Shown piece by piece: positions 19,906 through 61,435 of a DNA stretch of 64,000 nt. Source of the stretch: Spirochaetia bacterium (GTDB lineage Bacteria; Spirochaetota; Spirochaetia; SZUA-6; Bin103). Positions within the stretch are counted from its first letter, which is position 1; each line of letters starts with the position of its first letter. The stretch covers positions 2,208,001 through 2,272,000 of the forward strand of contig CBDAOI010000004.1 in NCBI GenBank assembly GCA_965198005.1. The letters run 5' to 3'. The translations under genes were made by a program, and so were the position numbers. Under the pieces are notes generated by a model. That model saw nothing but the letters and a program-made list of their open reading frames with translations. It ran no database searches and was not told the origin of the DNA.

Positions 19906-20126
19906 ATATTGGTAGCTGCTGTATAGCAAGCCGCCCCTGCGCGAACCCGGACCGGATCCCACCACGGGCGCCGGCACGGTCGACGTAGAGCCCGAATGCG
20001 TGCACGTTGATCCGTAGCAGGATCAGGACGAACTGCCGGATGCCGGTGCCGGCGATCTGCTGCCGTGCGCTACCGCTTGGCGGCGTCAGCGAGGCGGGGA
20101 ACGCGCTACCGGTGTGCGGCTCAAGG

Positions 20127-21120
20127 TGCTGCAAGCCTACCTGCCGCAGGCGGTCAGCCGCGAATATCCAAGCCCCACGATCACCTGTTCCGTTCCGTGT
20201 TCGGACAGGAACAGGAAACCGAGGCCGCCAGCCTGCTGTGGTCGAGCCTCAAGTGGCAGTCGGTGAGCTTCATCGACGACCGCCTGCGCGACAGCGAATC
20301 GGACCTGCTGTACGCGATCCGGCGCACGGCCGACGGCGCCGCGGCCTGGCTGTACGTGCTGCTGGAGCACCAGTCGACCCCGGACCCGTGGTTGCGGCTG
20401 CGGCTGCTGAAGTACAGCATCCGGATCTGGGAACGCGATCGGCGGCGGCATCCGCAGGAGCAACAGTTGCGCCCGATCGTGCCGCTGGTTCTGTATCAGG
20501 GCGGGCGCGTCTGGCGCGTAGCGCGCGAGTTTGCGGAGCTGTTCTCCGAGGCGGTGCGGGGTTGGCCGGGAGTGCCGCGCTACGCGCACCTGTTGATCGA
20601 CCAGACGCAGGTGCGACCGGAGGAGCTGCGCGGGGAGTTGCTCGGTCGCATCACGCAACTGGCGCTGATGGCGGCGCACCGGGCGAGTTGGCCGGTGTTG
20701 CAGCGGCTGGTGCCGCTGCTGGCGGAGTTGGCGGAGGTGGGCGGCAGCGAAGACCTGCGGCGGATCGTGGTGTACATTGCGACCACGACGCGGGAACCGG
20801 AGCGCTGGCACAGATTCGCGGAGGCAGTACGGCGACAGGTGCCGGGAGGTGGAGAACTGGTGAACAAGACCGAAGAGATGATCGAGATCTACGGCGATAT
20901 GAGGGAGCGTGAAGGACGACAGGAAGGACAACAGAAAGGCCGTCAGGAAGGACGTCAGGAAGGTGAGTTGCGCGGCAAGGTGCAAACCATCGAGGGATTC
21001 GTGAGACGAGATGTTCCTTGGTCCATCATCGAAGCGGCCACCGGGATCGACGAGGCCACCTTCGACGGGCTCAAGCACCAACTCGACGCCGCTAACGGCG
21101 ACGCCACCCAATCCAACTGA
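20127..21120 (+). pseudogene. Rpn family (YhgA-like PD-(D/E)XK) nuclease, copy 1, rearranged 5' end
   Basis: PHDHLF, SDLLY, LLEHQS; near-identical to 57784-58791 but lacks the native start. Confidence 0.85.
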
Positions 21121-21149
21121 ACCACGCCGAGGCCCGGCAGGTTGAAGAT

Positions 21150-21895
21150 GCCGGTCGGTATCTACTCGGCGATCCGCCCGGACACGGCCGCCGACTACGT
21201 GGGCCGGTCGCTGGCCATCCTCGGCTTGGCCACGCCCAACTTCTGGCTGGCCACCATGGTCATCGTGTTTCCCGCAATCTGGTGGCGCTGGTCGCCGCCG
21301 CTGGTGCTGGTCTCGTTCGCGGAAGACCCGCTCAGGAGCCTGGCCGGGTTCGCCGTTCCCAGCCTGATCCTGGGGACCTATCTGTCCGCGGCGACCATGC
21401 GGATGACGCGGACGATGATGCTGGAGGTGCTCAGACAGGACTACATCAGGACCGCGTGGTCCAAGGGGCTGCTGGAACGCGCGGTGATCCTGCGCCACGC
21501 CGTCAAGAACGCGCTGATCCCGGTGGTCAGCCTGGTCGCCCTGCAGGTGCCGATCCTGGTGGGCGGCTCGGTCATCATGGAGAACATCTTCAACCTGCCG
21601 GGGCTGGGACGGCTGCTGGTGGATGCGCTCACCATCAGAGACTACCCGATCGTGTCCGGCGTCAACCTGGTGTTCGCCACCGTGGTGGTGGCGGTCAATC
21701 TGGTGACCGACCTCTCGTACGCGCTGATCGATCCGCGCGTGCGCTACCGGGGCGCGGTGATCGCCGCCAAGGAGCACGTCTACTTCGAGGCGGCGCGGGC
21801 GGTCGGCAGCTCGCGCTGGCGGACGCTGCTGCACCACCTGCTGCCCAACATCGCGCCGGTGCTGATCGTCATCTACAGCATCAACATCGGCGCGC
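21150..21895 (+). pseudogene. Dpp/Opp permease B 3' half fused to a permease C fragment
   Basis: Matches 40921-41520, then 42012-42157. Confidence 0.85.
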
Positions 21896-21897
21896 GG

Positions 21898-21926
21898 TTG
21901 ACGGCTGTCGCAGGGTCGGCTATGGT
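21898..21926 (+). promoter_or_regulatory. Sigma70-type promoter, orphan copy
   Basis: TTGACG-17bp-TATGGT; homologous to 53996, 62696 and 62790. Confidence 0.6.
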
Positions 21927-22032
21927 GACCGTCTTGGGGTCCCGACGGATGCGGGGAAGAGCTTCGCGCCAATGGCATCCTGGAGCTTCGCGGGCTCCTT
22001 ACAGGGACCGAGTTCAGTGAAGCCGAGCCGGG

Positions 22033-22447
22033 CGCCCCTGCCGTAGGGCGCCGGCTCCGCCAACGCTGGTGGACAGTTCCGTTCGTGCGTGCCGGCAGAT
22101 CGACGCGGCGCGGGTGCGCATCACCGGCGGCGCGTGGCGCGACACGCTGGCCCAGGTCGTCGCACAGGCGGCAGCGGGACTCGGATGCCCTCCCGAGCAT
22201 ACTTCCGCGCAACTGTACAAGCTGTTGGTGTACGAGCCGGGCGGGTTCTTCGCCTCGCACCGGGATACCGAGAAGGTGGACGGCATGGTCGCCACGCTGG
22301 TGGTGTCGCTGCCGGTGGCGGGCGCCGGCGGCGAACTGGTCATCCGTCATGGCGAGCGCGAGGCCGTCGTCGACCTGTGCGCCACCGAGCCCTCCGAGCT
22401 TGCCTTCGCCGCCTTCTACGCGGATTGCGTCCACGAAATCCGGCCAG
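22033..22447 (+). pseudogene. 2OG-Fe(II) oxygenase fragment
   Basis: Near-identical to 33630-34049; first 30 nt are inverted. Confidence 0.85.
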
Positions 22448-22449
22448 TA

Positions 22450-24237: not shown

Positions 24238-25038
24238 TCATGTCAGCAACCGCAGCACGTCGTCTCGGTTGACCAGATCAATCTCTTCCTGGCGTTCGAG
24301 AAACGGACGCAGGTCGGTCACGGCGCGACCCCAATCCATGGCATCCAAGCGCTCGGCGAGCGACCGCCGCCACGTGTGCGGCGCCATCTCCGGACCGCGC
24401 CAACCGGTCTGCCCGAGTGCCGCGTTGAGCAGAGGGAAATTGGGCGGCGGCCATCCCGGGTCGCTCAGATACCAGCTCAGGTCGTACAGGTCGCGTCCCT
24501 TGGTGTAGGGGCGCTGCAGCACGGCATGCAGCTTGCCGGCGAGCAGGGACGCGCGGTCATGGTGAAACAACCGGAGCGTCTCGTGACGGCGTACCAGGCT
24601 GGTGTCCATCGTCGCTCCGGCGGGGGGCCGGGTGTCCACTTCGATCTTGATGGCGAGCACTTCGGCCGGGTGCGGCGACAGACCGATTTCGTACAGCAGG
24701 CCCGGGAACCGCACCAGGGCACTGTGCACCGTGCGGGAGTCCCGAACGCGCAGGTCGATGCGGTAGTGCTCCGCCGCCAGTTCGCCGCGGATCGTTTGCA
24801 GCCAGCCGCGCAGTCGGTACCCACCGTATTCGCCTTCCAAGGCGAAATCGAGGTCTTCGGAATAGCGCGGCAGGCTGAACAGGAAACGCAGGCACGTGCC
24901 CCCGTGAAACGCCAGTGAGGTCATCGCGCCGGCGCGCTGCAGCGCTCCGAGAATGCGCGCCTGCAGGTACTCGCGCGCGACGTTGCGGCCCCGCAGCGGC
25001 CCGCGTCCCTGCACGAGCTGTCGCAGGTGATCCTTCAC
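24238..25038 (-). CDS. AbiEii-family nucleotidyltransferase toxin (type IV TA)
   Basis: FHGGTCLR..RYSEDLDF and KGRDLYD. Confidence 0.88.
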   Translation of the reverse strand: MKDHLRQLVQGRGPLRGRNVAREYLQARILGALQRAGAMTSLAFHGGTCLRFLFSLPRYSEDLDFALEGEYGGYRLRGWLQTIRGELAAEHYRIDLRVRDSRTVHSALVRFPGLLYEIGLSPHPAEVLAIKIEVDTRPPAGATMDTSLVRRHETLRLFHHDRASLLAGKLHAVLQRPYTKGRDLYDLSWYLSDPGWPPPNFPLLNAALGQTGWRGPEMAPHTWRRSLAERLDAMDWGRAVTDLRPFLERQEEIDLVNRDDVLRLLT

Positions 25039-25670
25039 AGGGTGTCGTAGCCCGGCGCCTCGCCGGCAATACGGCGAATGCGGCCGGCGGCGCGCGCCAG
25101 CTTCGGCGTCGCACAGGTCTCGGCAAACGACTCCAACCGTTCGAGGCGCAACCGGTCGAAATCAAGCCGCAACTCGCGGAGATACGCCGCGTCGTCGCCG
25201 CCGGGCTGCAGATGGATCAGGTCGAGCAGCGCCTTCTCCGGCTCCGCCACGAAAGCGCGCTGCCCGTCGCCCAGGTCCACCTGGCGATAGCCGAACAGCA
25301 AGCCGGGCTTCAGGTGGCGGAAGGAACACCTGCCGAACGCCGTATGGCGCAGCTGCGGCCGCCCCGGCGTGACGCTGGTCACTTCGGCCACGTACTCCGG
25401 AATCGCCTGGACCAAGGCCAACGCCGACAGACCGCTGACGTAGGACCCCGGCACCAGCCGGTTCGCCACGAGGAACGGATGCGGGAGCCGTTTCTCCCAG
25501 GGCGGCGCCAGGGTATACAGTCCGCGCCGCAGTTGCCGAATCCTCCCGCTGCGCGTCCAGCGCGAGAGCTGGCGCCGCAGATCGGCAGGGTCAACGGCCC
25601 CCGCCAGCAGCAACCCGGTCTCGAACAGCGGCTCATCCGCCACGATCTCCGCCAACTCCTGAAATCGCAT
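25035..25670 (-). CDS. AbiEi-family antitoxin/transcriptional regulator
   Basis: LRRGLY, SYVS..SAL and EPEKALLD; 4-nt overlap with the toxin. Confidence 0.85.
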   Translation of the reverse strand: MRFQELAEIVADEPLFETGLLLAGAVDPADLRRQLSRWTRSGRIRQLRRGLYTLAPPWEKRLPHPFLVANRLVPGSYVSGLSALALVQAIPEYVAEVTSVTPGRPQLRHTAFGRCSFRHLKPGLLFGYRQVDLGDGQRAFVAEPEKALLDLIHLQPGGDDAAYLRELRLDFDRLRLERLESFAETCATPKLARAAGRIRRIAGEAPGYDTL

Positions 25671-25842
25671 TGCGACAAGTTACCATTTACGGCAGACTGT
25701 TGCCACAGTCAGACCCCCACAAGCCCCACAAAGCGCGGACGGCACGGAGCGCACTGCCTCGCAACGGCGCGCGGATGCGCTGGGGGTGGTGGCGGAGAGC
25801 GCGCTGGCGGGCAAGCTGGATCCGGGCGCGGCCGGTGACCGC

Positions 25843-26218
25843 TTGTGCAGCGCTCATCCTGGACGACGTCCGCGCCGGACTGCGTCTGTCCCTGGATGCG
25901 AGTTGGTCGTTGCTGGGAATCCAGCCTGACCTCTCGGCCTGGGGGAAGGCGATCGCCAGCGGCGAGCCCCTGTCAGCCATCCTCGGCAGCGAGCCCTACC
26001 GCGAAGCGGCCACGTCCATCTTCGTGACCGGATCGCTCTGGTACCAGGGGGCGCCGCTGGCGGCGGCCATCGAGACGCTCGAGCTGCTCGCCGAGGTGGA
26101 CGCTCCGGCCCTGCTGCAGCGCATGGGTCAACTGTTCCGCGACGGCCTCGCGGAGCAGTCCACCCGTTACGGCCACGCGCTCCGCCAGACCGGCCCCCGC
26201 AGATGCCCACCGTCATGT
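25843..26218 (+). pseudogene. Class III aminotransferase fragment
   Basis: Near-identical to ~53322-53697. Confidence 0.85.
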
Positions 26219-26274
26219 ACGACGAGTGCGTTCCGCGATCAACGTCCAGGCATGAGGGAATTGAAGAATCCGCA

Positions 26275-27653
26275 ACATCCGCCTGGGCGTTCGCTGGCAT
26301 GACAAGGCGCCGATGAACGGTCGCGCGCTGACCGCCGCGGACATCGAATTCAACTACCACCGGATGATGGGCCTCGGCAGCGGCTTCACCGAGCGGTTGT
26401 ACGGATCCGATCTTTTGGTCGGCGTCGAGGTCGAGTCGGTAACGGCCACCGACAGCTCGACGGTGGAGTTCAAGCTGGCGAGGCCAAGCGTCTCTGTTCT
26501 TGCCAAGATCATCCAGGGGCCGATTAACTTGATCTATCCGCCCGAGGTCATTCGGGCAGAGGGGGACGGCGAGGACTGGCGGGATCTGGTCGGCACCGGT
26601 CCCTATTCCCTCACCGACTGGACCAAGGGCAGCTCAATCACCTATGACAAGAATCCCGACTACTGGGGCTTCGACGAGAAGTTTCCGGACAACCGCCTCC
26701 CCTATTTCGACCAGTTACACGGGCTGATCATGCCCGAAGCGGCGACGTACCTGTCGGCGCTGCGCACCGGCCAGCTCGACTACGTGGGGGCGCTCACGCT
26801 CACCCAATTGCGGACTATTGATCAGCTGGAGAGCCTGCAGCGGACCAACCCGGAGCTCGTGCCCTCTCCGTATGGCCTACGGTCGGACAATGCGGTCGCC
26901 CCGAACACCCAGGTGGAGCCCTTTGGCGATATCCGAGTACGCAAGGCGCTGCAGATGGCGATCAACCTCGAGGAGATCAACCAGGGATTCTATAAAGGCT
27001 TTGCAGATACCATCCCCCAGGGACAGATCAGCCGCTTCAATGGGGCCGTCGCGGTCCAGTTCGATGAGTGGCCGGCAGATGTCAGGAAGGTATTCGAGTA
27101 TGACCCAGCCGGTGCCGAGGCGCTGCTCGACGAGGCGGGCTATCCGCGCGGCGCCGACGGCGTCAGATTCAAGACCGAGATCTTGCACCTCGAGCGTTAC
27201 GATCTGAACCACACCGAGCTCCTGATCAGTTACTGGGACGCCATCGGCGTCAAGGTAGAGGCCGAGGTGCGAGGGGGAGCTGAGTACGGGGCCAGAAGAA
27301 ACGCTCGAGAATATGAGCTCATCACGGCGGAAGGGGCTTGCAAGTGCCCCGCAATCCAAATTCTGGGGAAATTCCTTCCGACGGCAGGATGGAACACCTC
27401 CAATGTCGACGACCAGTGGTACCAGGCCAAGTTCGACGAGGCCGCTGGCGCGACCACGCTTGACGAGCAAAACGCGGCGCTCCGCGAGCTGGATATGTAC
27501 TCGATCGAGCAGTTCTGGCAGCTCTTCGGGCCAATTGGGCCGCAGTTCAACCTGGTCCAGCCGTGGGTCGCGGGATTCAACGGCGAGTCCACGATGGGAT
27601 GGGCCAGAGCAGTCTTCTGGCGCATCTGGTTCGATAGCAGCCTGAAGCCGTAG
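26275..27653 (+). pseudogene. ABC family-5 substrate-binding protein, N-terminally truncated
   Basis: Begins at IRxGVRWHDKAPMNGR; paralog of 38518-40290; no signal peptide. Confidence 0.8.
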
Positions 27654-27748
27654 AGCACGGCGCGTTTGCTGCTGGGGTGGGGTCGCGCACGGCCGGCGGC
27701 CGGCCCTGCTCCCCAGCTCAGTCCCCCACAAACGATGGAGCGTAATAG

Positions 27749-28558
27749 ATGAGGGCGTATGCCGTCCGGCGGCTGTTGATGGTCATCCCGACCCTGTTCC
27801 TCGTGACCGTCCTGGTGTTTCTGTCGGTCCGCTTCCTCCCGGGCGATCAGGCACTGATGGGCGGCGATACGGTGGAGCAGAGCATCGCCCAGAGACTACC
27901 GGTGACCATTCAGCTTGGCCTGATGGCGATCGTCATCGGGCTGGTGATAGCCGTGCCGGTCGGTATCTACTCGGCGATCCGCCAGGATACCGCCGCCGAC
28001 TACGTGGGGCGCTCGCTGGCCATTCTCGGGCTGGCGACGCCCAACTTCTGGCTGGCCACCATGGTGATCCTGTTTCCCGCCGTCTGGTGGCGCTGGTCCC
28101 CGCCGTTGGTGCTGGTCTCGTTCGCGGAAGACCCGCTCGGGAGCCTGGCTGGATTCGCCATTCCCAGCCTGATCCTCGGGACCTACCTGTCCGCGGCGAC
28201 CATGCGGATGACGCGGACGATGATGCTGGAGGTGCTCAGACAGGACTACATCAGGACCGCGTGGTCCAAGGGGTTGCTGGAGCGATCGGTGATTCTGCGC
28301 CACGCGGTCAAGAACACCCTCATCCCGGTGGTCAGCCTGGTCGCCCTGCAGGTGCCGATCCTGGTGGGCGGCTCGGTCATCATCGAGAACATCTTCAACC
28401 TGCCGGGGCTGGGGCGGCTGCTGGTGGATGCGCTTTCGATCAGGGACTACCCGATCGTGTCCGGCGTCAACTTGGTGTTCGCCACCGTGGTGGTGGCGGT
28501 CAATCTGGTGACCGACCTCTCGTACGCGATGATCGACCCGCGCGTGCGCTACCAGTAG
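27749..28558 (+). CDS. Dpp/Opp permease B with an in-frame internal deletion
   Basis: 52 aa shorter than 40559-41524 after FLPGD. Confidence 0.8.
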   Translation: MRAYAVRRLLMVIPTLFLVTVLVFLSVRFLPGDQALMGGDTVEQSIAQRLPVTIQLGLMAIVIGLVIAVPVGIYSAIRQDTAADYVGRSLAILGLATPNFWLATMVILFPAVWWRWSPPLVLVSFAEDPLGSLAGFAIPSLILGTYLSAATMRMTRTMMLEVLRQDYIRTAWSKGLLERSVILRHAVKNTLIPVVSLVALQVPILVGGSVIIENIFNLPGLGRLLVDALSIRDYPIVSGVNLVFATVVVAVNLVTDLSYAMIDPRVRYQ

Positions 28559-28566
28559 GGCACCGG

Positions 28567-29580
28567 ATGCGCACGTTCGCGGCGTTCCTGACCAACAGGC
28601 GCGGTCGCTCCATGACGCCGAAGCCCGTGCAGACCGGTGCACGGGGTGCGCAGGGTTCGCCCGCTGGAGGAGGTTTCCTGACTCGGCTGCGGCGGGAGAA
28701 GCCGCTGGCGGTGGTGCTCGGGAGCGTGCTGCTGCTGTTGATCGGGGTGGCGCTGTTGGCCGACGTGCTGGCGCCGTTCGCGCCCAACGAGGTGTTCCTG
28801 ATGGACCGGCTGCAGGGCTCCTCGGCGCGCTATCCGCTGGGCACCGACCAGTTGGGACGCGACTTCATGAGTCGTCTGATCTACGGCGCTCGCCTCACCC
28901 TGGGCGTCGGCCTGGCCGCGACCGCCGTCAACGTGCTGGTGGCGCTGGTCGTGGGCGGCGTTGCCGGCTTCATCGGTGGCCGGCTCGACCTGACCGTGCA
29001 GCGCTTCGTCGATGCCTGGATGTCGATTCCCGGCCTGCTGATCCTGCTGACGGTGATGTCGGTGGTCGGCCGGGGGGTGCTGCAGATCATCGTGGTGCTG
29101 GGGGTGCTGGGCGGCATCGGCGCCTCGCGGGTGGTCCGGGGCGCGGTGATCGCCGCCAAGGAGAACGTCTACTTCGAGGCGGCGCGGGCGGTCGGCAGCT
29201 CGCGCTGGCGCACCCTGCTGCGCCACCTGCTGCCCAACATCGCGCCGGTGCTGATCGTCATCTACAGCATCAACATCGGCGCGGTGGTGATCAGCGAGGC
29301 TTCCTTGAGCTTCCTCGGGTTCGGGCTGCCCACTACCGTGCCGAGTTGGGGCGGCATGCTCAGCCGCGAGGGGCGCCAGTACATGGAGATCGCGCCGCGG
29401 CTGGCGGTGTGGCCGGGCCTGTGTCTGACGGTGGTGGTGTACTGCCTGAACATGGTCGGCGACGCGGTGCGCGACCTGCTCGACCCGCGCCTGCGCGGCG
29501 GCAGCGGCCGGCTCGGCGCCTACGGCGCGCAGGCGGTCAGAAAAGCTACGCTGCCCGCACAGCCCGCGCGGAAGCTGTAG
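28567..29580 (+). CDS. Dpp/Opp permease C with a 90-nt N-terminal insertion
   Basis: LGTDQLGRD, EAA loop and SFLGFG. Confidence 0.88.
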   Translation: MRTFAAFLTNRRGRSMTPKPVQTGARGAQGSPAGGGFLTRLRREKPLAVVLGSVLLLLIGVALLADVLAPFAPNEVFLMDRLQGSSARYPLGTDQLGRDFMSRLIYGARLTLGVGLAATAVNVLVALVVGGVAGFIGGRLDLTVQRFVDAWMSIPGLLILLTVMSVVGRGVLQIIVVLGVLGGIGASRVVRGAVIAAKENVYFEAARAVGSSRWRTLLRHLLPNIAPVLIVIYSINIGAVVISEASLSFLGFGLPTTVPSWGGMLSREGRQYMEIAPRLAVWPGLCLTVVVYCLNMVGDAVRDLLDPRLRGGSGRLGAYGAQAVRKATLPAQPARKL

Positions 29581-29877: not shown

Positions 29878-30272
29878 AGCTGCTGCTCGATACCCACATC
29901 TGGGTGTGGAGCGTGGCGGACGAGTCACGCCTGACCGACATGGTGCGGCGCACCTTGGATGACCCAGCGCACGAGCGGTGGATTTCCGCCATCAGCGTCT
30001 GGGAAGTCCTGATCCTGGCTGAGCGAGGACGCTTGATTCTGGAACCCGATGCGCGGAGCTGGGTACGTCAGGCGTTGGCCGATGCACCCCTGCGCGAGGC
30101 TCCTGTCACGATCGAGGTGGCGTTAGCCAGCCGCGGCGTACGGCTACGGAATCAGGATCCAGCGGACCGCTTCATCGCCGCGAGCGCCATGGTGTTCGGC
30201 ATGACGCTGGTCACGGCCGACGGCGATCTGTGCGACTGCCCGGATATCGACGTGCTTCCCAATACCGGCTGA
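29874..30272 (+). CDS. vapC: VapC PIN-domain toxin
   Basis: LLLDTH, SVWE, DPADR and LVTAD. Confidence 0.9.
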   Translation: MKLLLDTHIWVWSVADESRLTDMVRRTLDDPAHERWISAISVWEVLILAERGRLILEPDARSWVRQALADAPLREAPVTIEVALASRGVRLRNQDPADRFIAASAMVFGMTLVTADGDLCDCPDIDVLPNTG

Positions 30273-30329
30273 CCATCCCGCGCGGAAGTGACCCCGCCCG
30301 CGGTCGCCGTAGTTGCGATGCGCAGCTGG

Positions 30330-30890
30330 TTATCCCAGGGACAGGGTTTCCGGTACGAACAGGTCCGCCGGGGCAACCGCTTGCGGTATCTATCCCTGGT
30401 CCACGTTGAACCGGATGAAGGTCTCCAGAGTCTTGCGCGAACTCTCGAAGCTGTAGGGCAAGGGGTCGTCGCCGACGGTCTCCGCCAGCTTCAGCAGCGG
30501 CCGATCCCCGGCGTCGGCGGCGGCGCCGGAGCGCAGGCGGCGCAGGAACTGGGACCTGGCCTCGTTGAACAGGCGAAACAGCTCGGTCGCGAGACCGGCG
30601 TGCGACTGTGGCTGACGGGATAGACCCCGGTCTTGCGGTGCCAGGCGTCGTCGGCCTGGCGCGATGGCGGCGTCGATCTCGCCCGCCAGCAGCATCCGGC
30701 CGAGGTCGTTGTTGGGCGACGCCACCACGTTGGACGGCGCGACGTACTCCTCGACGTGTTTGTCGGTTGCCAGCACCCAGGTGACCGCGCCCAGGTCAAC
30801 GCCGTATTCGGTCGCCAGGATGCCGCGCGTCCAGACGCCCGTCGTGAACCTGTAGCTGCGGACGCCCACCCTCCGGCCTTCGAGGTCACC
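30330..30890 (-). pseudogene. 4,5-dihydroxyphthalate decarboxylase-like / binding-protein remnant, copy 1
   Basis: VGVRSY..TTGVW.RGIL..EYGVD, LLAGEIDAAI and GDDPLPY. Confidence 0.7.
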
Positions 30891-30905
30891 ACCTACGACG
30901 CCGAC

Positions 30906-31135
30906 TCACGACGGACCTCCAACCGGTTGCAGGCGGACTCCTCCCAGGCTTGGCGGGTGAAGGTGCGGCAGGTGACGGGGGTACGGCGGGCGCGGCAGAC
31001 GGCGCGGCGGCGGCGCATGTTGGCGCGCTCGGTCCACCCGCACCGGAAGTAGGAGACGAGGTAGTGGCAACGGTTGCCCGTGCAGCCGATGGCCCGCGCT
31101 GCCGCCTTCCACTGGCGATCGTGGCCGTGCCCCCG
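30906..31135 (-). pseudogene. SprT-like domain C-terminal fragment
   Basis: GHGHD.QWKAAARAIGC..RC. Confidence 0.45.
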
Positions 31136-31139
31136 GCCG

Positions 31140-31345
31140 CAGACGCAAATTCGCGATGTCGTCACTGCCGCCCTGCGCCACCGGCACGATGTGATCGATC
31201 TGCCGCTGCACGGTCCATAACCGCAGGTCACGCCGGTGAGCGGGTCCTGGTAGCAGCAAGCCCCACCGTCCCTCCGCCACACCGCACATCGCCCCGCCGC
31301 CGGAATGTGCGGCCGCCCGCTGCGTGCGCGCGTGGATTCGGGTGC
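31140..31345 (-). pseudogene. HNH endonuclease C-terminal fragment
   Basis: VWRRDGGAC...QIDHIVPVAQGG...NL; paralog at 59660-59930. Confidence 0.7.
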
Positions 31346-31629
31346 TGGTGGCCGCGCCGCCTTGGGTGCAACGGTGCCCACGGTAATCCCTTCGATGGCA
31401 TCGAAGTGCTCCCGGTAAGGGAATTCCTCACTGCCCTGCGGGATGGTGCGATTCTCGACGAGTAGTAGACGAGTAGCATACGTGCGCTTGCTGAGTCGCC
31501 GCACACTTCGATCTTGATGGCGCTTGAGCGAGATCGCGTGTGGTGTACCGGCGGTGCGTGGCGCGGGTGCGTGCGGGTGCGGTGCGTGCGTGGCTTGACG
31601 CCGCCGGCGAGGACACTTACCGTTGCGCC

Positions 31630-32115: not shown

Positions 32116-32126
32116 GAGCTGGGGGA

Positions 32127-33157: not shown

Positions 33158-33214
33158 TCACGCACCAAGCCCACGCCACTCGCGCCAGTCCGCGCTAGTC
33201 TGGCGCCACCTTGA

Positions 33215-33525: not shown

Positions 33526-33628
33526 GCGGCTGGTGGGACGCGAACAGGGACTGCACCGAGAACGAGCGGGCACGTGCGTTCCTGGCGGACTGCCGGGCCA
33601 TAACCGGTAGCTGCGTTCGCTGGCCGCG

Positions 33629-35887: not shown

Positions 35888-35894
35888 GGCTGCT

Positions 35895-43512: not shown

Positions 43513-43526
43513 GCGGGGTGAACCAT

Positions 43527-48604: not shown

Positions 48605-48679
48605 GTGCCCGCTGGCAGGGCCTCCTTCTCTCTCAAAAAACTTAGTTCTACGCGTTGGAAGATCAAATAAGACCAGCGC

Positions 48680-49433: not shown

Positions 49434-49510
49434 GCAACTTAATTGCGGATAAATGGAATCTTTCCGCAGAAGAGTTGCGATATTCCGAAGGAGAGCATAA
49501 GCTCGGGAAC

Positions 49511-50674: not shown

Positions 50675-50808
50675 TATACATGCGCTTGCTGAGTCGCCGC
50701 ACACTTCGATCTTGATGGCGCCTGAGCGAGATCGCGTGTGGTGTACGGGCAGTGCGTGGCGCGGGTGCGTGGCTTGACGCCGGCGGTGCGGGCACTTACC
50801 GTTGCGCC

Positions 50809-51303
50809 GTGCCGCTCCACTCACTCGACCCACTCGACCCACTCGATCCGAAGGTGACGCAATTCATCCAGGACAACCCCCAAGGGGTGCTGACCACCTA
50901 CCGTCGGAACGGCAAGGCGCAGATGAGCATCGTCACCGTCCGTCCGCACCGTGGGGTGATCGGTGTGTCGATTACCGAGAGCCGGGCGAAGTTCAACAAC
51001 CTGGTGCACAACCCGGCCTGCTCGATCCTGGTATCAACCGCCGACTGGTGGTCGGGCTTCATCGTGTTCGATGGCACCGCCGAGCTGGTCTGGTCGGGCA
51101 ACGCCGACGCGGAGACCGTACGGCTCGCCAGACGCGAGGTCTACAGCGCAACTACGCGGCGCCGGTCGGCGGATTGGGATGACTACGACCGCCTGGTGGA
51201 CGCCGATAGACGAGTGGCGCTGATTATCCGGCCCACCCACGTGTACGGGACATTCTTTAATACCAGTTGGCCCGGCAGGCGCATCGCACCCGGCGGACAG
51301 TAG
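50809..51303 (+). CDS. PPOX-class protein, copy 2
   Basis: Paralog of 31630-32115 with one extra LDP unit. Confidence 0.75.
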   Translation: MPLHSLDPLDPLDPKVTQFIQDNPQGVLTTYRRNGKAQMSIVTVRPHRGVIGVSITESRAKFNNLVHNPACSILVSTADWWSGFIVFDGTAELVWSGNADAETVRLARREVYSATTRRRSADWDDYDRLVDADRRVALIIRPTHVYGTFFNTSWPGRRIAPGGQ

Positions 51304-51314
51304 GCGCTGGGGGA

Positions 51315-51575
51315 GTGACAATGAACGTGAATGCGGTCGGCTCACCGCCGCGTGATCGCGCTGAGTTCAAACTACGCCTTGGCACGATGGTCGCGCGCTA
51401 CCGCACCGAATGTCTCTGGGATCTGAAGGCCAGTCTGGATCTTGAGCAGGAGCAGGTCGCACGCATGGTGCTGCGACGGGTCATCTCATGCGCTGACCGC
51501 AACGGTTACATCGAAGCCCGGGGACTTCTGGAGTGGCTCTTACAGACTTCCAACGCACCGTCTGCCGGCTCCTAG
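51315..51575 (+). CDS. Small putative antitoxin, copy 2
   Basis: Paralog of 32127-32387. Confidence 0.6.
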   Translation: MTMNVNAVGSPPRDRAEFKLRLGTMVARYRTECLWDLKASLDLEQEQVARMVLRRVISCADRNGYIEARGLLEWLLQTSNAPSAGS

Positions 51576-52345
51576 CGGACCACCGCAAACGTGAGGGAGT
51601 CAGCTACATTGCCGGCGCGCTGGCTCTAAACCTGCTCCTCGAGTTGCCGCGCGTCTCCCGAGACATCGACATTTTTCACGACGCCGAGGAGGCGGTTCAC
51701 TCGTCGTTCGACGCCGACCGGCAGCATTTGCAGGCCAACGGCTGCTCGATCACCATGCTGAGGGAGCTGCCCGGCTTCGTACAGGTGGTGGTCAGCAAAG
51801 CCGGCGACGAGGTACGTATGGAATGGACCCGCGACAGCGCGTTTCGTTTCTTCCCGCTGGTGGAGCACGAAGACCTGGGCCTGACGATGCACCCGTTCGA
51901 CTTGGCAACCAACAAAGTGCTCGCGCTGGTAGGGCGGCTCGAGGTGCGCGATTGGGTCGACGTGATCAACTCCCACGCCAAGCTGCAGCCGCTGGGCTAC
52001 CTCATGTGGGCAGCTTGCGGTAAAGATCCCGGCTTCAGCCCGGGATCGCTGCTCGCGCACGCGCGCCGGACGGCACGCTACTCCGCCTTGGAAATCGCGC
52101 AGTTGCAGTTCGAAGGCGACCCGCCGGACGCCGCCGCGCTGGCCGGCAACTGGCACGCAATGCTGACCCAGGCGGGTGAGATCATAGACACGTTACCCGC
52201 CGAGCAATCTGGCACCTGCGTCCTCAATGACCGCAGAAATCTGTTCACGGGTAATCGCACCCAGCTAAAACACGCACTCGACGCAGCGGCGCTGCGATTT
52301 CATGCCGGCACTCTTGGTGGTGCACTCCCCCAGGTCGTCGAGTAA
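51533..52345 (+). CDS. AbiEii-like nucleotidyltransferase, copy 2
   Basis: Paralog of 32345-33157. Confidence 0.75.
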   Translation: MALTDFQRTVCRLLADHRKREGVSYIAGALALNLLLELPRVSRDIDIFHDAEEAVHSSFDADRQHLQANGCSITMLRELPGFVQVVVSKAGDEVRMEWTRDSAFRFFPLVEHEDLGLTMHPFDLATNKVLALVGRLEVRDWVDVINSHAKLQPLGYLMWAACGKDPGFSPGSLLAHARRTARYSALEIAQLQFEGDPPDAAALAGNWHAMLTQAGEIIDTLPAEQSGTCVLNDRRNLFTGNRTQLKHALDAAALRFHAGTLGGALPQVVE

Positions 52346-52346
52346 T

Positions 52347-52623
52347 GCCGCACACTTCGATCTTGATGGCGCCTGAGCGAGATCGCGTGTGGTGTACGGG
52401 CGGTGCGTGGCGCGGGTGCGTGGCTTGACGCCGGCGGTGCGGGCACTTACCGTTGCGCCGTGCCGCTCCACTCACTCGACCCACTCGATCCGAAGGTGAC
52501 GCAATTCATCCAGGACAACCCCCAAGGGGTGCTGACCACCTACCGTCGGAACGGCAAGGCGCAGATGAGCATCGTCACCGTCCGTCCGCACCGTGGGGTG
52601 ATCGGCGTGTCGATTGCCGAGAG
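52347..52623 (+). pseudogene. Third, truncated PPOX copy with its promoter
   Basis: Matches 50696-50981. Confidence 0.85.
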
Positions 52624-53995: not shown

Positions 53996-54024
53996 TTGAC
54001 GGCTGTTGCGGCGTCGGCTATGGA
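53996..54024 (+). promoter_or_regulatory. Sigma70-type promoter fused directly to the binding-protein CDS
   Basis: TTGACG-17bp-TATGGA. Confidence 0.6.
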
Positions 54025-55741
54025 GCAGCCGGCCGCGGCCATGGAGAAGGAGATGGTGCTCGACCCGACCACCGGCGAGATGGTCACCGCCCCGGAGTAC
54101 GGCGGGACAATAACCTTCGTCGTCAAGCTGGAGCCGCCGAGTGCCGACCCCTTGTTCGGCAGCGGGGCGTCACGGGGACCCGATGGCGTCACCGAGAAGC
54201 TGGGCATCGTCAACTGGGGAATCGACCGGGAGGTGTACGACCTCACCGGTGCGTTCTTCTACTTCCGGCTGTCGGTCCTGACCGGCCGGCTGGCGGAAAG
54301 CTGGGAAACGCCTGACGCCACCACCGCCATCTTCAACATTCGCCGGGGCGTTCACTGGCACGACAAGGCGCCGATGAACGGTCGCGAGTTGACGGCCGGG
54401 GACGTCGAATTCAACTTTCACCGCATGTCGGGCAGTGGCAGCGGCTTCACCGAGCCTCCCGGAGGCTACGCCGCCATTTTTGCCACCCTGCCGTTCGCAT
54501 CAATCGAAGCCACCGACGACCACACGGTCGTAATGACCCTGTCGGAACCAAGGCTCGGGTGGGTATCGTCGGTCCTGGTCGACTGGGCGGCGCACGTCAT
54601 GCCCCCGGAGGTGATCAGGGAACACGGCGACGTGAAGGACTGGAGGAACCTGGTGGGTACCGGGCCTTTCATGATGACGGACTGGGTGGACGGCAGCTCG
54701 CAGACCTGGGTCAGAAGTCCGGACTACTGGGGCTTCGACGAGAAATTCCCCGAGAACCGCTTGCCCTATTTCGATGAAGTGCACGGCCTGATCATGAAGG
54801 AAGACGCTACCATTCTGGCCGCACTGCGTTCGGGCACGTTGGACTACGTCGGTTTGGTTGGCGCCGCCGAGATGATCTATACGGCCCAGAAAGAGAGTCT
54901 CGAGCAGTCCAACCCCGACATGCTGTTTTACCCGTACGCGGGTCGCTCGGAGAATGCCATGACGTACAACATGGGCGATGACCAGCCGTACGCCACGGAC
55001 GTCCGGGTGCGCCGGGCGTTGCAGATGGCGCTCGACCTCGAGACGATGCACGATACCTACTTCAAAGGAGCATCCTTCTGGGTACCTCAGGGCACGGTCG
55101 GCAACGCCATCGGCGGGGTCCCATTTGACGAGTGGCCCGAAGAGGTCCGGAAGGGATACATGTATGACCCGGAAGGGGCCGAGGCGCTGCTTGACGAGGC
55201 GGGGTTGCCGCGCGGCGCCGACGGCACCAGATTCGAAATCGCGCTGCAACACTACGAGTTCTTCGACGTGGACTACGCGCAATTGGCCGTCGCCTACTGG
55301 AAGGAGATCGGCGTTGACGTACAGATCGACGTGACGGAACGCAGTGAACACTTGGCCCGTATCCGGGAACGTGGGTTCGAGGGAATGGTCAGCGCGATTT
55401 CCGCCATTTCGTATCTGTCCCCGCTGGTGGCGATCGGCTCCAATTATTCGCAGTCGGCATGGAACCCTCCCGGCCTCGACGACCCGGAGTTCGACCGCCT
55501 GTATGAAGCCGCCCGCGACGCCGCCACCGAGGAGGAGCAGATACGGATGGCCAACCTGGCAGACATGTGGCTGACGGAGAATCACATACGCGTATGGGGG
55601 CCTACCGCTCCCAAGTTCAACGCGGTCCAGCCGTGGCTCAAGGGGTACAACGGTGAATCAATGCTGGGGGGCGATGACCGGTTGGTTCTGTTCTCTCGCC
55701 TCTGGTTCGACCATGCCCTGATGGAGGAAATGGGTCAGTAG
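54020..55741 (+). CDS. ABC family-5 substrate-binding protein lacking a signal peptide
   Basis: Starts at EQPAAAMEKEMVLDPTTGE..PEYGG. Confidence 0.85.
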   Translation: MEQPAAAMEKEMVLDPTTGEMVTAPEYGGTITFVVKLEPPSADPLFGSGASRGPDGVTEKLGIVNWGIDREVYDLTGAFFYFRLSVLTGRLAESWETPDATTAIFNIRRGVHWHDKAPMNGRELTAGDVEFNFHRMSGSGSGFTEPPGGYAAIFATLPFASIEATDDHTVVMTLSEPRLGWVSSVLVDWAAHVMPPEVIREHGDVKDWRNLVGTGPFMMTDWVDGSSQTWVRSPDYWGFDEKFPENRLPYFDEVHGLIMKEDATILAALRSGTLDYVGLVGAAEMIYTAQKESLEQSNPDMLFYPYAGRSENAMTYNMGDDQPYATDVRVRRALQMALDLETMHDTYFKGASFWVPQGTVGNAIGGVPFDEWPEEVRKGYMYDPEGAEALLDEAGLPRGADGTRFEIALQHYEFFDVDYAQLAVAYWKEIGVDVQIDVTERSEHLARIRERGFEGMVSAISAISYLSPLVAIGSNYSQSAWNPPGLDDPEFDRLYEAARDAATEEEQIRMANLADMWLTENHIRVWGPTAPKFNAVQPWLKGYNGESMLGGDDRLVLFSRLWFDHALMEEMGQ

Positions 55742-55793
55742 GGACTACGCAGAGTCGGGAGGCTCAGCTTCCCGGCTCTCTTGGTTGCATCAC

Positions 55794-56749
55794 ATGAGAG
55801 CGTACGTCGTCAGGCGGATACTGCTCATCATTCCCACCCTGTTCCTGCTGAGCATCCTGGTCTTCCTGTCGGCGCGCTTCATTCCCGGCGACATCGTGGA
55901 CACCATGATGGCGTCTGACCAGAACGCCATGTTCGGCGTGGACCGTGAGGCGTTGCTGCGTGCGCTGGGGCTGGACGTGCCGGTCCACGTGCAGTACGGA
56001 CGCTGGCTGGAGGGGATTCTGCTGCGCGGTACCCTCGGCAACTCGCTGCTCGGCGATTGGCCGGTGGAGGAGAAGATCGCGGGCAGGCTCCCGGTCACGC
56101 TCGAGCTCGGCTTCCTGGCGCTCGTGATCGGGCTGGTGCTGGGGGTGCCGATCGGCATCTGGTCGGCGATTCACCAGGATACCACCGTCGACTACGCGGG
56201 CCGTTCGGTCGCCATCCTCGGCTTGGCCACGCCCAACTTCTGGCTCGGAATCATGGTTATGACCTATCCGGTGATCTGGTGGGGTTGGACGCCACGGATG
56301 CAGCTCATTCCGTTCGCCGAGAATCCGCTGGAGAATCTCGAGATGTTCATCATTCCCGGCCTGATTCTCGGTACGGCCCTGTCGGCCGCCACCATGCGGA
56401 TGACGCGCACGATGATGCTGGAGGTGCTGCGCCAGGACTATATCAGGACCGCCTGGTCCAAGGGATTGCGGGAGCGGGTCGTGGTCATCCGGCACGCCGT
56501 CAAGAACGCCCTCATTCCGTCGTGACCCTGATCGGCCTGCAGTTGCCGATCCTGGTCGGCGGCGCCGTCATCATGGAGAATATCTTCAACCTGCCGGGCC
56601 TCGGGCGTCTCATGCTGACCGCGCTCACCGACCGCGACTACCCGGTGATCTCGGGCATCAACCTGTTCTTCGGGACGGTGGTGATCGGGATCAATCTGAT
56701 GATCGACCTGATCTACGGCTACCTGGATCCCCGGGTCCGCTACACCTAG
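55794..56749 (+). CDS. Dpp/Opp permease B, -1 frameshift near 56519
   Basis: NALIP/VTLIGLQ split across frames. Confidence 0.85.
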
Positions 56750-56755
56750 CCAGGT

Positions 56756-57712
56756 ATGGGGACCGAGCGTATGGGGGACGCCGCAAGGACACCATCAGCG
56801 GGGCTGGTTCACTTTCTGGTCCGGCTGTGGCGCGAGAAGCCGCTCGGCACCGCCGGCGGCGTGGTCGTGTTGGGCTTGATTCTGGTGGCGATCTTCGCCG
56901 ACGTGCTGGCCCCCTATCCGTTCGATGAAGTGCACCTGAGAGCGCTGCTGAAACCGCCGTCGGCCGAGCATCTGATGGGTACCGACCAGTTGGGGCGCGA
57001 CTTCCTGAGCCGCAACATCCACGGGGCTCGGGTTTCCATGCTCGTGGGCGTGGTCGCGACCAGCCTCAACGTGCTGGTTGCGGTGCTGATCGGCGGCACG
57101 GCCGGATTCTTCGGCGGCAAACTGGACCTGGTGGTGCAGCGGTTTGTCGACGCCTGGATGGCGTTTCCGGGTCTGCTGCTGTTGCTGACGATCATGTCGC
57201 TGGTCGGACAGGGCCTGCTGCAGCTCATCCTGGTGCTGGGCGTCACGGGCGGCGTGGTGGCTTCGCGGCTGGTCCGAAGCGCCGTGATCGCGGTCAAGGA
57301 GAACGACTACCTGCAGGCGGCCACGGCCACCGGCAGCACCCGAATGGGAGCGCTGGTGCGCCACGTGCTGCCCAACGTGGCGGCGCCGATCATCGTCGTG
57401 TTCAGCATCAACATCGGCGCGGTGATCATCAGCGAGGCGTCGCTGAGTTTCCTGGGGTTCGGTCTGTCGCCCGAGATTCCGAGCTGGGGGACGCTGCTGA
57501 GCCGGGACGGCCGCAAGTACATGGAGCAGGCGCCGTGGCTGGCGCTGTGGCCCGGCCTGTGCCTGACCCTCACCGTCTACAGTCTCAACATGTTCGGCGA
57601 CGCGCTGCGCGACCTGCTGGACCCGCGCCTGCGGGGCGGCGGCGGCCGTCTCGGAACCCACCGCGGCCGGCGGTCGCGGCCCAAACCCGGTCGCAGCCGG
57701 TCACGCGGGTGA
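56756..57712 (+). CDS. Dpp/Opp permease C
   Basis: MGTDQLGRD and GDALRDLLDPR. Confidence 0.92.
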   Translation: MGTERMGDAARTPSAGLVHFLVRLWREKPLGTAGGVVVLGLILVAIFADVLAPYPFDEVHLRALLKPPSAEHLMGTDQLGRDFLSRNIHGARVSMLVGVVATSLNVLVAVLIGGTAGFFGGKLDLVVQRFVDAWMAFPGLLLLLTIMSLVGQGLLQLILVLGVTGGVVASRLVRSAVIAVKENDYLQAATATGSTRMGALVRHVLPNVAAPIIVVFSINIGAVIISEASLSFLGFGLSPEIPSWGTLLSRDGRKYMEQAPWLALWPGLCLTLTVYSLNMFGDALRDLLDPRLRGGGGRLGTHRGRRSRPKPGRSRSRG

Positions 57713-57783
57713 GAGCACCTGGTCGATCCCGACGACGCTAACCAGTCTATCAGCCGTTGACATCGACTGACGTGACACATACC

Positions 57784-58791
57784 ATGGCCCAAGCCATGGC
57801 CGGCGAGGTCTCCAAGCCCCACGATCACCTGTTCCGTTCCGTGTTCGGACAGGAAAAGGAAACCGAGGCCGTCAGCTTGCTGCAAGCATACCTGCCGCAG
57901 GCGGTCAGCCGCGAATTGCTGTGGTCGAGCCTCAAGTGGCAGTCGGTGAGCTTCATCGACGACCGCCTGCGCGACAGCGAATCGGACCTGCTGTACGCGA
58001 TCCGGCGCAAGGCCGACGGCGCCGCGGCGTGGCTGTACGTGCTGCTGGAGCACCAGTCGACCCCGGACCCGTGGTTGCGGCTGCGGCTGCTGAAGTACAG
58101 CATCCGGATCTGGGAACGCGATCGGCAGCGGCATCCGAAGGAGGACCGGTTGCGCCCGATCGTGCCGCTGGTTCTGTATCAGGGCGGGCGCGTCTGGCGC
58201 GAAGCGCGCGAGTTTGCGGAACTGTTTGCCGAGGCGGTGCGGGGTTGGCCGGGAGTGCCGCGCTACGCGCATCTGTTGATCGACCAGACGCAGGTGGGAC
58301 CGGAGGAGTTGCGCGGGGAGCTGCTTGGTCGCATCGCGCAACTGGCGATGATGGCGGCGTTCCGGGCGAGTTGGCCGGTGTTGCAGCGGCTGGTGCCGCT
58401 GCTGGCGGAGTTGGCGCAGGTGGGCGGCAGCGAAGACCTGCGGCGGATCGTGGTGTACATTGCGACCACGACGCGGGAACCGGAGCGCTGGCACAGATTC
58501 GCGGAGGCAGTACGGCGACAGGTGCCGGGAGGTGGAGAACTGATGAACAAGACCGAGGAGATGATCGAGATCTACGGCGACATGAGGGAACGTGAAGGAC
58601 GTCAGGAAGGACGTCAGGAAGGACATCAGGAAGGTGAGTTACGCGGCAAGGTGCAAACCATCGACGGACTCGTGGCACGGGATGTCCCCTGGTCCATCAT
58701 CGAAGCGGCCACCGGAATCGACGAGGCCACCTTCGACCGGCTCAAGCACCAACTCGACGCCGCTGACGGCGGCGCCACCCACTCCAACTGA
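57784..58791 (+). CDS. Rpn family nuclease, intact copy 3
   Basis: PHDHLF, SDLLY, LLEHQS, PIVPLVLY and EGRQ repeats. Confidence 0.9.
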   Translation: MAQAMAGEVSKPHDHLFRSVFGQEKETEAVSLLQAYLPQAVSRELLWSSLKWQSVSFIDDRLRDSESDLLYAIRRKADGAAAWLYVLLEHQSTPDPWLRLRLLKYSIRIWERDRQRHPKEDRLRPIVPLVLYQGGRVWREAREFAELFAEAVRGWPGVPRYAHLLIDQTQVGPEELRGELLGRIAQLAMMAAFRASWPVLQRLVPLLAELAQVGGSEDLRRIVVYIATTTREPERWHRFAEAVRRQVPGGGELMNKTEEMIEIYGDMREREGRQEGRQEGHQEGELRGKVQTIDGLVARDVPWSIIEAATGIDEATFDRLKHQLDAADGGATHSN

Positions 58792-59014
58792 ACCACGCCC
58801 CTCGGCGCCCGGTGGGCGCGCCCTCGATCACCTCATCTTCTGTGAGCTGGGCCTCACTCTATGGCACACGACCGTGGAAGCGGCACGACGCTGCACTTTC
58901 TCCGGCCCCGCCACGAATGCCCGTTGACCGCACGCCCGGACGCGGTCGGTGGGGATGGGACGAAAGCGGCGCCGACAGGCGATGGTTTCGGGGGCGCTTG
59001 CACGTCAGGAGGCG

Positions 59015-60387: not shown

Positions 60388-60415
60388 TTGACGTACCAGC
60401 CCACGTACGTACAAT
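60388..60415 (+). promoter_or_regulatory. yefM-yoeB promoter/operator
   Basis: TTGACG-16bp-TACAAT with overlapping GTAC palindromes. Confidence 0.6.
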
Positions 60416-60461
60416 ACCATGTGCGGAGGTGCAACACTTGCACGTCAGGAGGCGTAAGGGC

Positions 60462-60743
60462 GTGGCGAATGAGCGGATAACGAACTACACGGCGGCGCGT
60501 CAAAACCTCAAGTCGCTGATGGACGCCGTGATCGAAGATCGAGTGCCGGTGATCATCACGCGGACAACGGGCGATCCGGTCGTCATGATGGCCAAGTCCG
60601 AGTACGACGCAACGATGGAGACCTTCCATCTGCTGCGCTCCCCGCGCAACGCGGAGCGTCTGCGCGAGGCAATCGCCGAGGTCGAAGCCGGCAAGGTCGT
60701 CCAGGCCGACGTCGTCGATGGGGCAATCGTAGAGCGCGCGTGA
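60462..60743 (+). CDS. yefM: YefM antitoxin
   Basis: YTAARQNL and ETFHLLRSPRNAERL. Confidence 0.9.
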   Translation: MANERITNYTAARQNLKSLMDAVIEDRVPVIITRTTGDPVVMMAKSEYDATMETFHLLRSPRNAERLREAIAEVEAGKVVQADVVDGAIVERA

Positions 60744-61015
60744 AACGGCCAGCCCGCCCGGCGGTCATCGCTTTCTCACGGCAGGCATGGGAAGATTACC
60801 AAGCTTGGGTCCAGCACGACCGAACGGTGGCACGGCGAATCGCACGTCTGATCGAGGAGTGCCTGCGCGACCCGTTCCACGGGATCGGAACCCCGGAGCC
60901 TCTGAAGCATGAGCTCGCCGGCTATTGGTCGCGCCGGATCACGCGGGAACACCGGCTCGTGTACCGAGTCGCGGGCGGTCGGTGCCTGGTCGTCCAGGGT
61001 CGCTACCACTACTGA
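60740..61015 (+). CDS. yoeB: Txe/YoeB toxin
   Basis: AWEDY, GIG.PEPLK, WSRRI..EHRLVY and RYHY. Confidence 0.92.
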   Translation: MKRPARPAVIAFSRQAWEDYQAWVQHDRTVARRIARLIEECLRDPFHGIGTPEPLKHELAGYWSRRITREHRLVYRVAGGRCLVVQGRYHY

Positions 61016-61028
61016 TGCTGAGACACGA

Positions 61029-61093
61029 GCCTCGCTGAGCTTCCTCGGGTTCGGGCTGCCTACCACCGTGCCGAGCTGGGGCGGCATGCTCAG
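61029..61093 (+). pseudogene. Permease C snippet
   Basis: ASLSFLGFGLPTTVPSWGGML. Confidence 0.8.
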
Positions 61094-61136
61094 AAGCGTG
61101 ACCGCCGCAACGCCGGGCGGCCAAGGGCGTGGGTGG

Positions 61137-61392
61137 TCAGCCCAGGGACAGGGTCTCCGGCGCGAACAGGTCAGCCGGGGCTATTGCCTGCGGTAGCACG
61201 TTCTGCTCGACGTTGAAGCGTATGAAGGTCCAGAGTCTTGCGCGAACTCTCGACTCCGTAGGGCAAGGGGTCGTCGCCGACCGTCTCCGCCATCTTCCGC
61301 AGCGACCGATCCCAAGCGTCGGCGGCGTCGCCGGACCGCAAGCGGGGCAGGTATCGCGACTTGGCTTCGTCGAACAGGCGGAACAGCTCGGC
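61137..61392 (-). pseudogene. Decarboxylase-like remnant, copy 4
   Basis: TFIRFNVEQNVLPQAIAPADLFAPETLSLG*. Confidence 0.7.
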
Positions 61393-61435
61393 ACGCTTGG
61401 TTGCACGCCGTACGCCAATTGGCTATAAACAAGGC

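Follow-up and report, generated by a model that had tools for sequence, protein, structure and literature searches.

The stretch of DNA dealt with here ("the window", 64,000 nt in its full length) corresponds to positions 2208001–2272000 of contig C4 of a Spirochaetia bacterium whose metagenome-assembled genome (MAG; assembly G000) comprises 4.89 Mb in 4 contigs, and the subject is the patchwork of short gene pieces, butted against one another, that is found in its 20–64 kb portion. As indicated by Pfam matches and by a protein-level map, a Dpp/Opp-type unit encoding a binding protein (SBP), permease B and permease C is present at least five times in this portion, with starts at ~26.3, 38.3, 48.6 (a patchwork), 54.0 and 63.0 kb; all the SBP, permease B and permease C fragments of the window lie on the + strand. 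The spaces between the units are occupied by two Rpn/YhgA genes and one fragment thereof, by AbiE and Phd/PIN pairs, by a duplicated PNPOx/nucleotidyltransferase module, by AAA+PDDEXK_9, AAA_14+DUF4143 and LLM oxidoreductase genes and by a 2OG-oxygenase-like gene accompanied by three partial copies.

In the initial annotation this region was described as pervasively scrambled, with snippets of 25–75 nt from other genes stitched into the junctions in either orientation. The observation is confirmed, and the interpretation given to it is partly supported. Two of the co-oriented matches are found as described, namely that of 42636–42708 with 24970–25042 (69 of 73 positions) and that of 49104–49149 with the amidase segment 47569–47614 (46/46), as are those with the reverse complements of 56581–56606 (21125–21150; 23/26), 33630–33659 (22033–22062; 30/30) and 44700–44733 (37921–37954; 34/34). 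The likeness reported at ~7325–7390 is likewise real, since the 73-nt segment 7320–7391 aligns with a gene having EHN/Abhydrolase_1 matches, and the snippet beginning at 58814 matches 50345–50380 as far as 58849 (94% over 36 nt), but the similarity is weak past ~58851 and its extension to 58874 is not borne out. The pieces derive from the interior or from the 5′ part of ordinary genes; they abut gene fragments with no duplicated flank, and neither terminal inverted repeats nor target-site duplications, the marks of insertion sequences (IS) or transposons, were found with them.

It is the orientation of the pieces that had been overstated. Inverted pieces do occur at three loci, but the exact 22-mer pairs within the window number 4776 direct and 24 inverted; since 30 order-3 Markov simulations yielded 0 pairs of either kind, the matches of the window are not produced by chance. 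Self-comparison of the window gives ~100 high-scoring segment pairs (HSPs), the longest of 1.8 kb, with identities of 92–98%, and sequences recurring elsewhere in the genome at ≥90% identity account for 57% of the 20–64 kb portion as opposed to 15% of the first 20 kb (1–20 kb). This redundancy extends to the entire genome, in which self-search returned 21,430 HSPs at ≥88% identity, 24–40% of every contig is repeated, and ~132 SBP_bac_5, ~143 permease B and ~130 permease C loci are near-full, with 71–112 additional partial loci for each of the three genes. Isolated matches, defined as exact, at least 22 nt long, at most 40 kb apart and with unrelated flanks on both sides, amount to 623 direct and 112 inverted pairs genome-wide, 20 and 3 of which, respectively, are in the window. 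The direct pairs become rarer the farther apart their two members are (40 per kb of separation at 1–2 kb, 1.9 at 32–40 kb); the frequency of the inverted ones is flat, and none is found under 1 kb.

When scored for microhomology, the 17 junctions at which two pieces abut display overlaps ranging from −1 to 14 nt (median 4 nt), values that fit replication slippage, template switching or end joining. At seven sites (7320, 21750, 30607, 30665, 33411, 45139 and 49092) the arrangement is that of a collinear, co-oriented deletion derivative for which a longer copy exists. The segment 44992–45280, for instance, is the 2OG-oxygenase-like gene minus 320 nt (joint at 45139), and at 21750 the end of permease B meets the middle of permease C. 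A further case is that of 48951–49435, in which four pieces are butted with overlaps of 1, 4 and 6 nt and in which the amidase piece (49092–49148) has an identifiable template and overlaps of 1 and 4 nt at its joints. This piece and C4:1617855–1617911 share a private 1-nt deletion as well as ~9 flanking bases, which implies that the amidase piece was formed once and copied afterwards; furthermore, the joint at 49092 represents an 865-nt deletion relative to C4:1618918–1617855, and this later deletion argues against the origin of the 48951–49435 chain in a single event.

Judged from these alignments, most of the pieces are remnants of larger co-oriented duplications. This is an outcome that the initial annotation had itself listed as refuting its view, in which templated insertion was favored over both IS insertion and simple deletion; the joints are indeed non-homologous, with microhomology, and not of the IS type, but remnants of co-oriented duplications account for the majority of the pieces, those at 21124, 22033 and 37921 being the exceptions, and nothing in the data requires an uncharacterized local shuffling process. 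The reading that we consider to be probably correct, with appreciable reservation, is one of microhomology-mediated duplication followed by decay through deletion, with a few templated patches. From the observed duplications, their common orientation, the intermediates, the microhomology and the lineage-specific junctions, we infer both the order of events and the enzymes that may be responsible. An ancestral unit of ~10 kb, in which the genes for a binding protein of Dpp/Opp type and for two permeases were accompanied by an ATPase remnant, by genes of AAA/nuclease type, by toxin-antitoxin modules and by one Rpn and one LLM oxidoreductase gene, would have undergone at least five segmental duplications, all with the same orientation, giving rise to the plastic island at 20–64 kb. 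Numerous deletions, both small and large, together with local re-duplications and a few insertions, would then have worn down each copy in a different way, the joints being made by homology-independent, microhomology-assisted joining, i.e., replication slippage, template switching or end joining. Of the 25–120-nt snippets, the majority would be what is left of a gene copy between two nearby deletions, and a minority would represent short patches templated or captured at a break or at a stalled fork.

Several data weigh against so simple an account. The patches at 21124, 22033 and 37921 are not accounted for by collinear remnants, and the arrangement at 22033 needs either two strand switches or the re-ligation of a 30-nt fragment. 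One breakpoint of the amidase piece is reused within 1 nt at two loci. For the three cleanest snippets, donors with 100% identity are located 1.5–11.6 kb away, whereas the neighboring blocks are 92–98% identical; exact donors so close by hint at recent local copying, with the caveat that exact matches are those that readers notice. The LLM, 2OG-oxygenase and AbiEii snippets begin 2–4 nt upstream of start codons (covering codons 1–11, 1–10 and 1–23, respectively). Finally, no snippet junction is spanned by the listed public contigs, all of them short, with which positions 30001–50000 were compared.

Of the inverted patches, that at 22033–22062 is the most telling. It sits exactly at the edge of the duplication and is a 30-nt inverted copy of sequence that is natively found 5 nt upstream of the block that was duplicated, and its joints display 0–4 nt of microhomology; to judge from this arrangement, it is clearly a templated or captured patch. 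The source gene is present in four relatives (G003, G001, G004 and G005), in all of which it has the native orientation, and the junction is found in none of them. Fold-back priming was considered as its origin and rejected, for it would yield rc(Y)-X-Y (rc being the reverse complement) and not rcX-Y. The 21124–21150 and 37921–37954 pieces are probably patches of the same templated or captured kind. The former carries a conserved permease motif that matches three other loci at 25/25 and has in the genome at least 25 matches equal to or better than the 23/26 mentioned above, so that the donor of the 21125 piece cannot be named. The latter reproduces exactly the opening 11 codons of the LLM gene together with 2 nt upstream of them; paired with 44700–44733, it makes up a perfect inverted repeat of 34 bp that encloses 6.7 kb. 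Copying from mRNA 5′ ends was another candidate discarded: gene starts are touched by 2/51 inverted and 6/374 direct isolated pairs, compared to 0.7% per random interval, in a test based on crude gene calls (2859 open reading frames, ORFs), and these counts indicate that there is no general genome-wide start-codon pattern. As a separate observation, the LLM snippet is directly followed (37955–37992) by a repeated intergenic motif containing a TTGACA box, further copies of which are found at C1:58273, C1:60999 and C4:821427 and in the single-contig relative G001.

The 34-bp repeat calls to mind an inversion switch which, by flipping the 6.7 kb, would exchange what lies upstream of the LLM gene and turn unit copy B around; the repeat has no mismatch (34/34) and starts 2 nt upstream of the start codon, and a crossover between its arms would restore an intact LLM gene either way. 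We regard a functional switch as highly improbable, given that recombinase or invertase families are matched by 0/90 ORFs scanned between 18.4 and 64 kb, that the LLM gene plus 262 nt upstream is contiguous both at C4:1572k and in G001, which means that 44733 is not a breakpoint, and that no strand-changing joint is seen among 15 of 55 public-contig joints listed. Furthermore, the case is the sole one of its kind, both gene-start inverted pairs of the genome (2/51) falling within the window. A simple 6.7-kb inversion with staggered breaks was rejected on similar grounds, the LLM gene and its upstream region being contiguous at two other loci.

A rival with a larger, though still small, likelihood is that breaks inflicted by resident PD-(D/E)XK nucleases (Rpn, AAA+PDDEXK_9 and DUF4143-type, as predicted) are repaired by primer-template switching or by Ku/LigD capture in single complex events, which would stitch into the junctions short copies taken from paralogs close by. 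Two intact Rpn ORFs, with Transposase_31 (PF04754) scores of 110 bits (20011–21117) and 131 bits (57742–58788) against a cut-off of 21, and other nuclease-domain genes do lie within the island, and the search for end-joining, PrimPol and reverse-transcriptase genes suggested in the initial annotation found Ku (C4:657693–658229), a LigD primase-polymerase (C4:662174–662920), ligase domains (C4:658655 and C4:663068) and many RVT_1 ORFs, the genes for non-homologous end joining (NHEJ) being 1.5 Mb away from the window on the same contig. Chains of pieces joined with 1–6 nt overlaps and no filler, the inverted 22033 patch templated 5 nt from the breakpoint, and the capture of DNA into genomic breaks by NHEJ in S. 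meliloti (PMC6379672) are in keeping with this rival, as is the fact that the arms of isolated matches are denser in the 10-kb bins with an Rpn match (6.5 vs 2.8 in those without). However, this last difference, which bears on the suggestion of the initial annotation that the process may be fed by Rpn breaks, is weak (p=0.019) and, after stratification by ABC-gene density and removal of the matches inside Rpn genes, is not significant (p=0.057); moreover, the ~20 Rpn loci of the genome are in many cases fragmentary, i.e., broken up like everything else. The orientation bias (4776:24), the lack of isolated inverted matches less than 1 kb apart and the existence of stepwise intermediates also run counter to single complex events. 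Also of low likelihood is the wider proposition that in this lineage the nuclease-rich islands (Rpn, AAA+PDDEXK_9, AAA_14+DUF4143) arise and are remodelled through Ku/LigD capture or break-induced primer-template switching, with the pasting of 25–110-nt copies of nearby paralogs into junctions; if true, it would represent a natural counterpart of the microhomology-mediated "sequence assembly" proposed for RpnA of E. coli and a force behind the birth and death of the Dpp/Opp-type operons, of which there are more than 130.

That the snippet junctions could instead be artefacts of metagenome assembly (chimeric consensus, or a wrong graph path among relatives or paralogs) is very unlikely. It is true that the MAG consists of 4 contigs whose ends repeat internal regions at 99.3–99.8%, that the best public runs contain only 52–58% of the sampled words, with no listed contig bridging a snippet junction, and that two junction strings had 0 matches among the JGI metagenome contigs, a result uninformative on junctions; but unrelated sequences are joined here by 0–14 nt, whereas graph mis-joins arise inside shared sequence, and the amidase piece, private 1-nt deletion included, is found with different flanks at two loci that are 590 kb from each other. 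Differences of 2–4 bases between some pieces and their donors count against an artefact, as the initial annotation had already argued from such differences. In addition, contigs from two studies match the window exactly over 300–480 nt, and the block edges at 31392 and 35895 are both bridged by X20 contigs, the latter edge by one that matches 35692–35989 with 0 differences. A further element comes from ten genomes of other species of the same genus, all uncultured MAGs: six junction-spanning queries (including those at 21124, 22033, 37921, 42636 and 58814) found no junction spanned in any of them, a finding that an artefact would also explain and that otherwise marks the snippet joints as specific to this lineage. 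Yet the independently assembled, single-contig relative G001 has compact versions of the units and the same kind of patchwork, its syntenic 100 kb containing 16 partial matches among 42 rows and 9432 direct vs 16 inverted 22-mer pairs, so that patchwork is a feature of the lineage and not of one assembly. Within this relative, a 25-residue FG-GAP fragment (C1:4760662–4760736) is located 1.6 kb upstream of a full FG-GAP gene and resembles in this respect the amidase piece of the window, which lies 1.5 kb from its own gene. Those public runs that are labelled sponge or marine metagenome contain only small shares of the words, and no habitat is claimed on this basis.

Duplication followed by deletion decay, the preferred reading, has its closest likeness in the duplication-decay "graveyards" of repeat-rich host-associated bacteria, with which the island shares co-oriented partial copies, internal deletions at short microhomologies, intermediates elsewhere in the genome and copies differently eroded in sister species; it differs from them by the presence of ~130–143 near-full Dpp/Opp-type loci in 4.89 Mb and by the size of many pieces, only 26–110 nt. 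Break-induced replication mediated by microhomology (MMBIR) and fork stalling and template switching (FoSTeS), as well as short-range template-switch mutations, the subject of PMC8421209, PMC7954356 and PMC11724301, likewise entail templated pieces with 0–14 nt of microhomology, sometimes inverted and sometimes chained. The island differs in that the orientation is overwhelmingly direct, there are stepwise intermediates, a single-event origin is shown for no chain, and strand switching is demanded only by the 22033 junction.

The presence of two PF04754 genes at the edges of island blocks recalls the RecA-independent recombination by RpnA (YhgA-like) of E. coli, whose products were proposed by Kingston et al. 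2017 (PMC5350276) to prime template-switch joining and possibly to help assemble islands; since 2023 the Rpn proteins of E. coli have in addition been interpreted as toxic nucleases with an antiphage role (PMC10400941). In the present case the association falls short of statistical significance, and a functional link would be hypothetical. With regard to Ku/LigD capture, for which S. meliloti offers the example of a fragment captured in either orientation at a chromosomal break (PMC6379672), Ku and LigD are encoded and a 30-nt fragment re-ligated upside-down would give the 22033 junction, but the median overlap of 4 nt neither proves nor excludes NHEJ. A literature search of titles and summaries found nothing on this lineage or pattern.

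What the island teaches is that a striking gene "confetti" can come from ordinary duplication and deletion under an extreme load of paralogs, and that orientation bias, distance decay, intermediates and microhomology constitute a checklist by which remnants can be told from templated patches. The genome, a quarter of which is repeated, with its extreme ABC-operon paralogy (more than 130 operons and ~100 fragments per gene), is relevant to the evolution of symbiont genomes. The inverted patches, and chiefly that at 22033, offer clean natural cases of fragment capture or template switching, the bacterium being endowed with both Ku/LigD and Rpn, and could serve, should strain series become available, to test the published idea that Rpn nucleases feed the microhomology-mediated assembly of islands. 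The features of the window are collected in Table 1.

Table 1. Genes, gene fragments and patches of the window (coordinates are those of the window; aa, amino acids)
Feature	Position	Strand	Remarks
Chromate transporter and partial epoxide hydrolase duplicate, with 745-nt internal deletion	6140–7391		6140–7320 = 9210–10398 (94.9%); 7320–7391 = 11144–11216 (90.4%); 1-nt overlap
Rpn/YhgA-like (Transposase_31) copy 1	20127–21128	+	PF04754, E 1.2e-31
Inverted 26-nt permease-B motif, between Rpn copy 1 end and permease-B fragment	21124–21150	−	
Permease-B fragment aa 119–321 joined to permease-C fragment aa 161–209	21142–21894	+	4-nt overlap CCGG
Truncated 2OG-oxygenase-like copy with inverted 30-nt patch (22033–22062)	22033–22448	+	22063–22448 = 33665–34050 (98%)
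AbiEii/AbiEi toxin-antitoxin pair	24238–25670	−	Source locus of the 42636–42708 piece
DUF222 109-nt orphan, 378-nt aminotransferase fragment, 5′-truncated binding-protein gene	25735–26242	+	1-nt abutment between the first two
Dpp/Opp-like unit copy A: binding protein truncated at ~aa 112, permease B, permease C	26268–29574	+	Net 156-nt deletion in permease B
PNPOx + AbiEii-like nucleotidyltransferase module copy 1, then Rpn fragment aa 182–309	31392–33543	+	Copy 2 = 50601–52353, 94.5%
Full 2OG-oxygenase-like gene	33626–35887	+	First 31 coding + 3 upstream bases = native form of the 22033 patch
Orphans: permease C aa 127–168, permease B aa 261–280	35895–36159	+	
AAA_35/AAA_22 + PDDEXK_9 gene, split over two frames	36160–37819	+	Multi-copy in all relatives
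Exact inverted 34-nt copy of LLM monooxygenase gene start	37921–37954	+	Source gene 43790–44731(−)
Dpp/Opp-like unit copy B: binding protein, permease B, permease C	38287–42452	+	
73-nt piece (AbiEii codons 1–23 + 4 nt upstream); 20 nt on, permease-B fragment aa 109–246	42636–43143	minus-strand sense, direct relative to source	
Two collinear 2OG-oxygenase fragments	44933–45280	+	320-nt internal deletion, 2-nt overlap
Five-piece patchwork: binding protein aa 88–187, permease C aa 131–183, amidase aa 133–149, permease B aa ~244–271, permease C aa 212–282	48646–49435	+	
AAA_14 + DUF4143 gene, PNPOx/nucleotidyltransferase module copy 2, 277-nt PNPOx 5′ repeat	49436–52623	+	7-nt overlap at the repeat
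Dpp/Opp-like unit copy D, Rpn copy 2 (57757–58791), 36-nt AAA_14/DUF4143 piece (58814–58849)	53996–58849	+	

Some of these features deserve a comment. In the 5′ part of Rpn copy 1 two pieces of 39 and 72 nt are swapped in order with respect to Rpn copy 2 and to the relatives, in which the sequence is contiguous as in copy 2; the joints of this rearrangement contain a 1-nt filler and a 5-nt TGCTG overlap. The 29 nt adjoining the inverted 22033 patch (22001–22029) match many loci both here and in the relatives at 93–97%. The DUF222 piece (25735–25843), absent from the list of the initial annotation, has sharp bounds and matches, at 96–99% identity, a 524-residue gene of which five full copies lie in other parts of the genome. 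The AAA_35/AAA_22 gene with a C-terminal PDDEXK_9 domain (525-residue type) has dozens of matches in the relatives G009 and G012, and over its region (36160–37819) the depth of the public contigs is 10–40 times that of the neighboring bins.

As to the genome at large, RVT_1 has 32 matches (including C3:814562 and C4:168789), and ~15–18 near-identical ORFs of 538 residues look like a proliferating retroelement, which we would guess to be group II intron-like. At the contig ends, C1:1–18867 repeats C4:1721566–1740448 at 99.3–99.7% and C2:1–10317 repeats C3:796493–806809 at 99.8%; these ends either fall at long repeats or carry strain duplicates. Scans of the whole window for tRNAs and Rfam families gave 0 matches. 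Two intergenic elements of the window are repeated at 86–96% identity, that at 38033–38256 in at least 6 copies and that at 46120–46186, which folds into a hairpin, in at least 17, and a tandem repeat with units of ~43–63 nt (89–96% identity) occupies positions 45779–45893 within a minus-strand, coiled-coil-like ORF.

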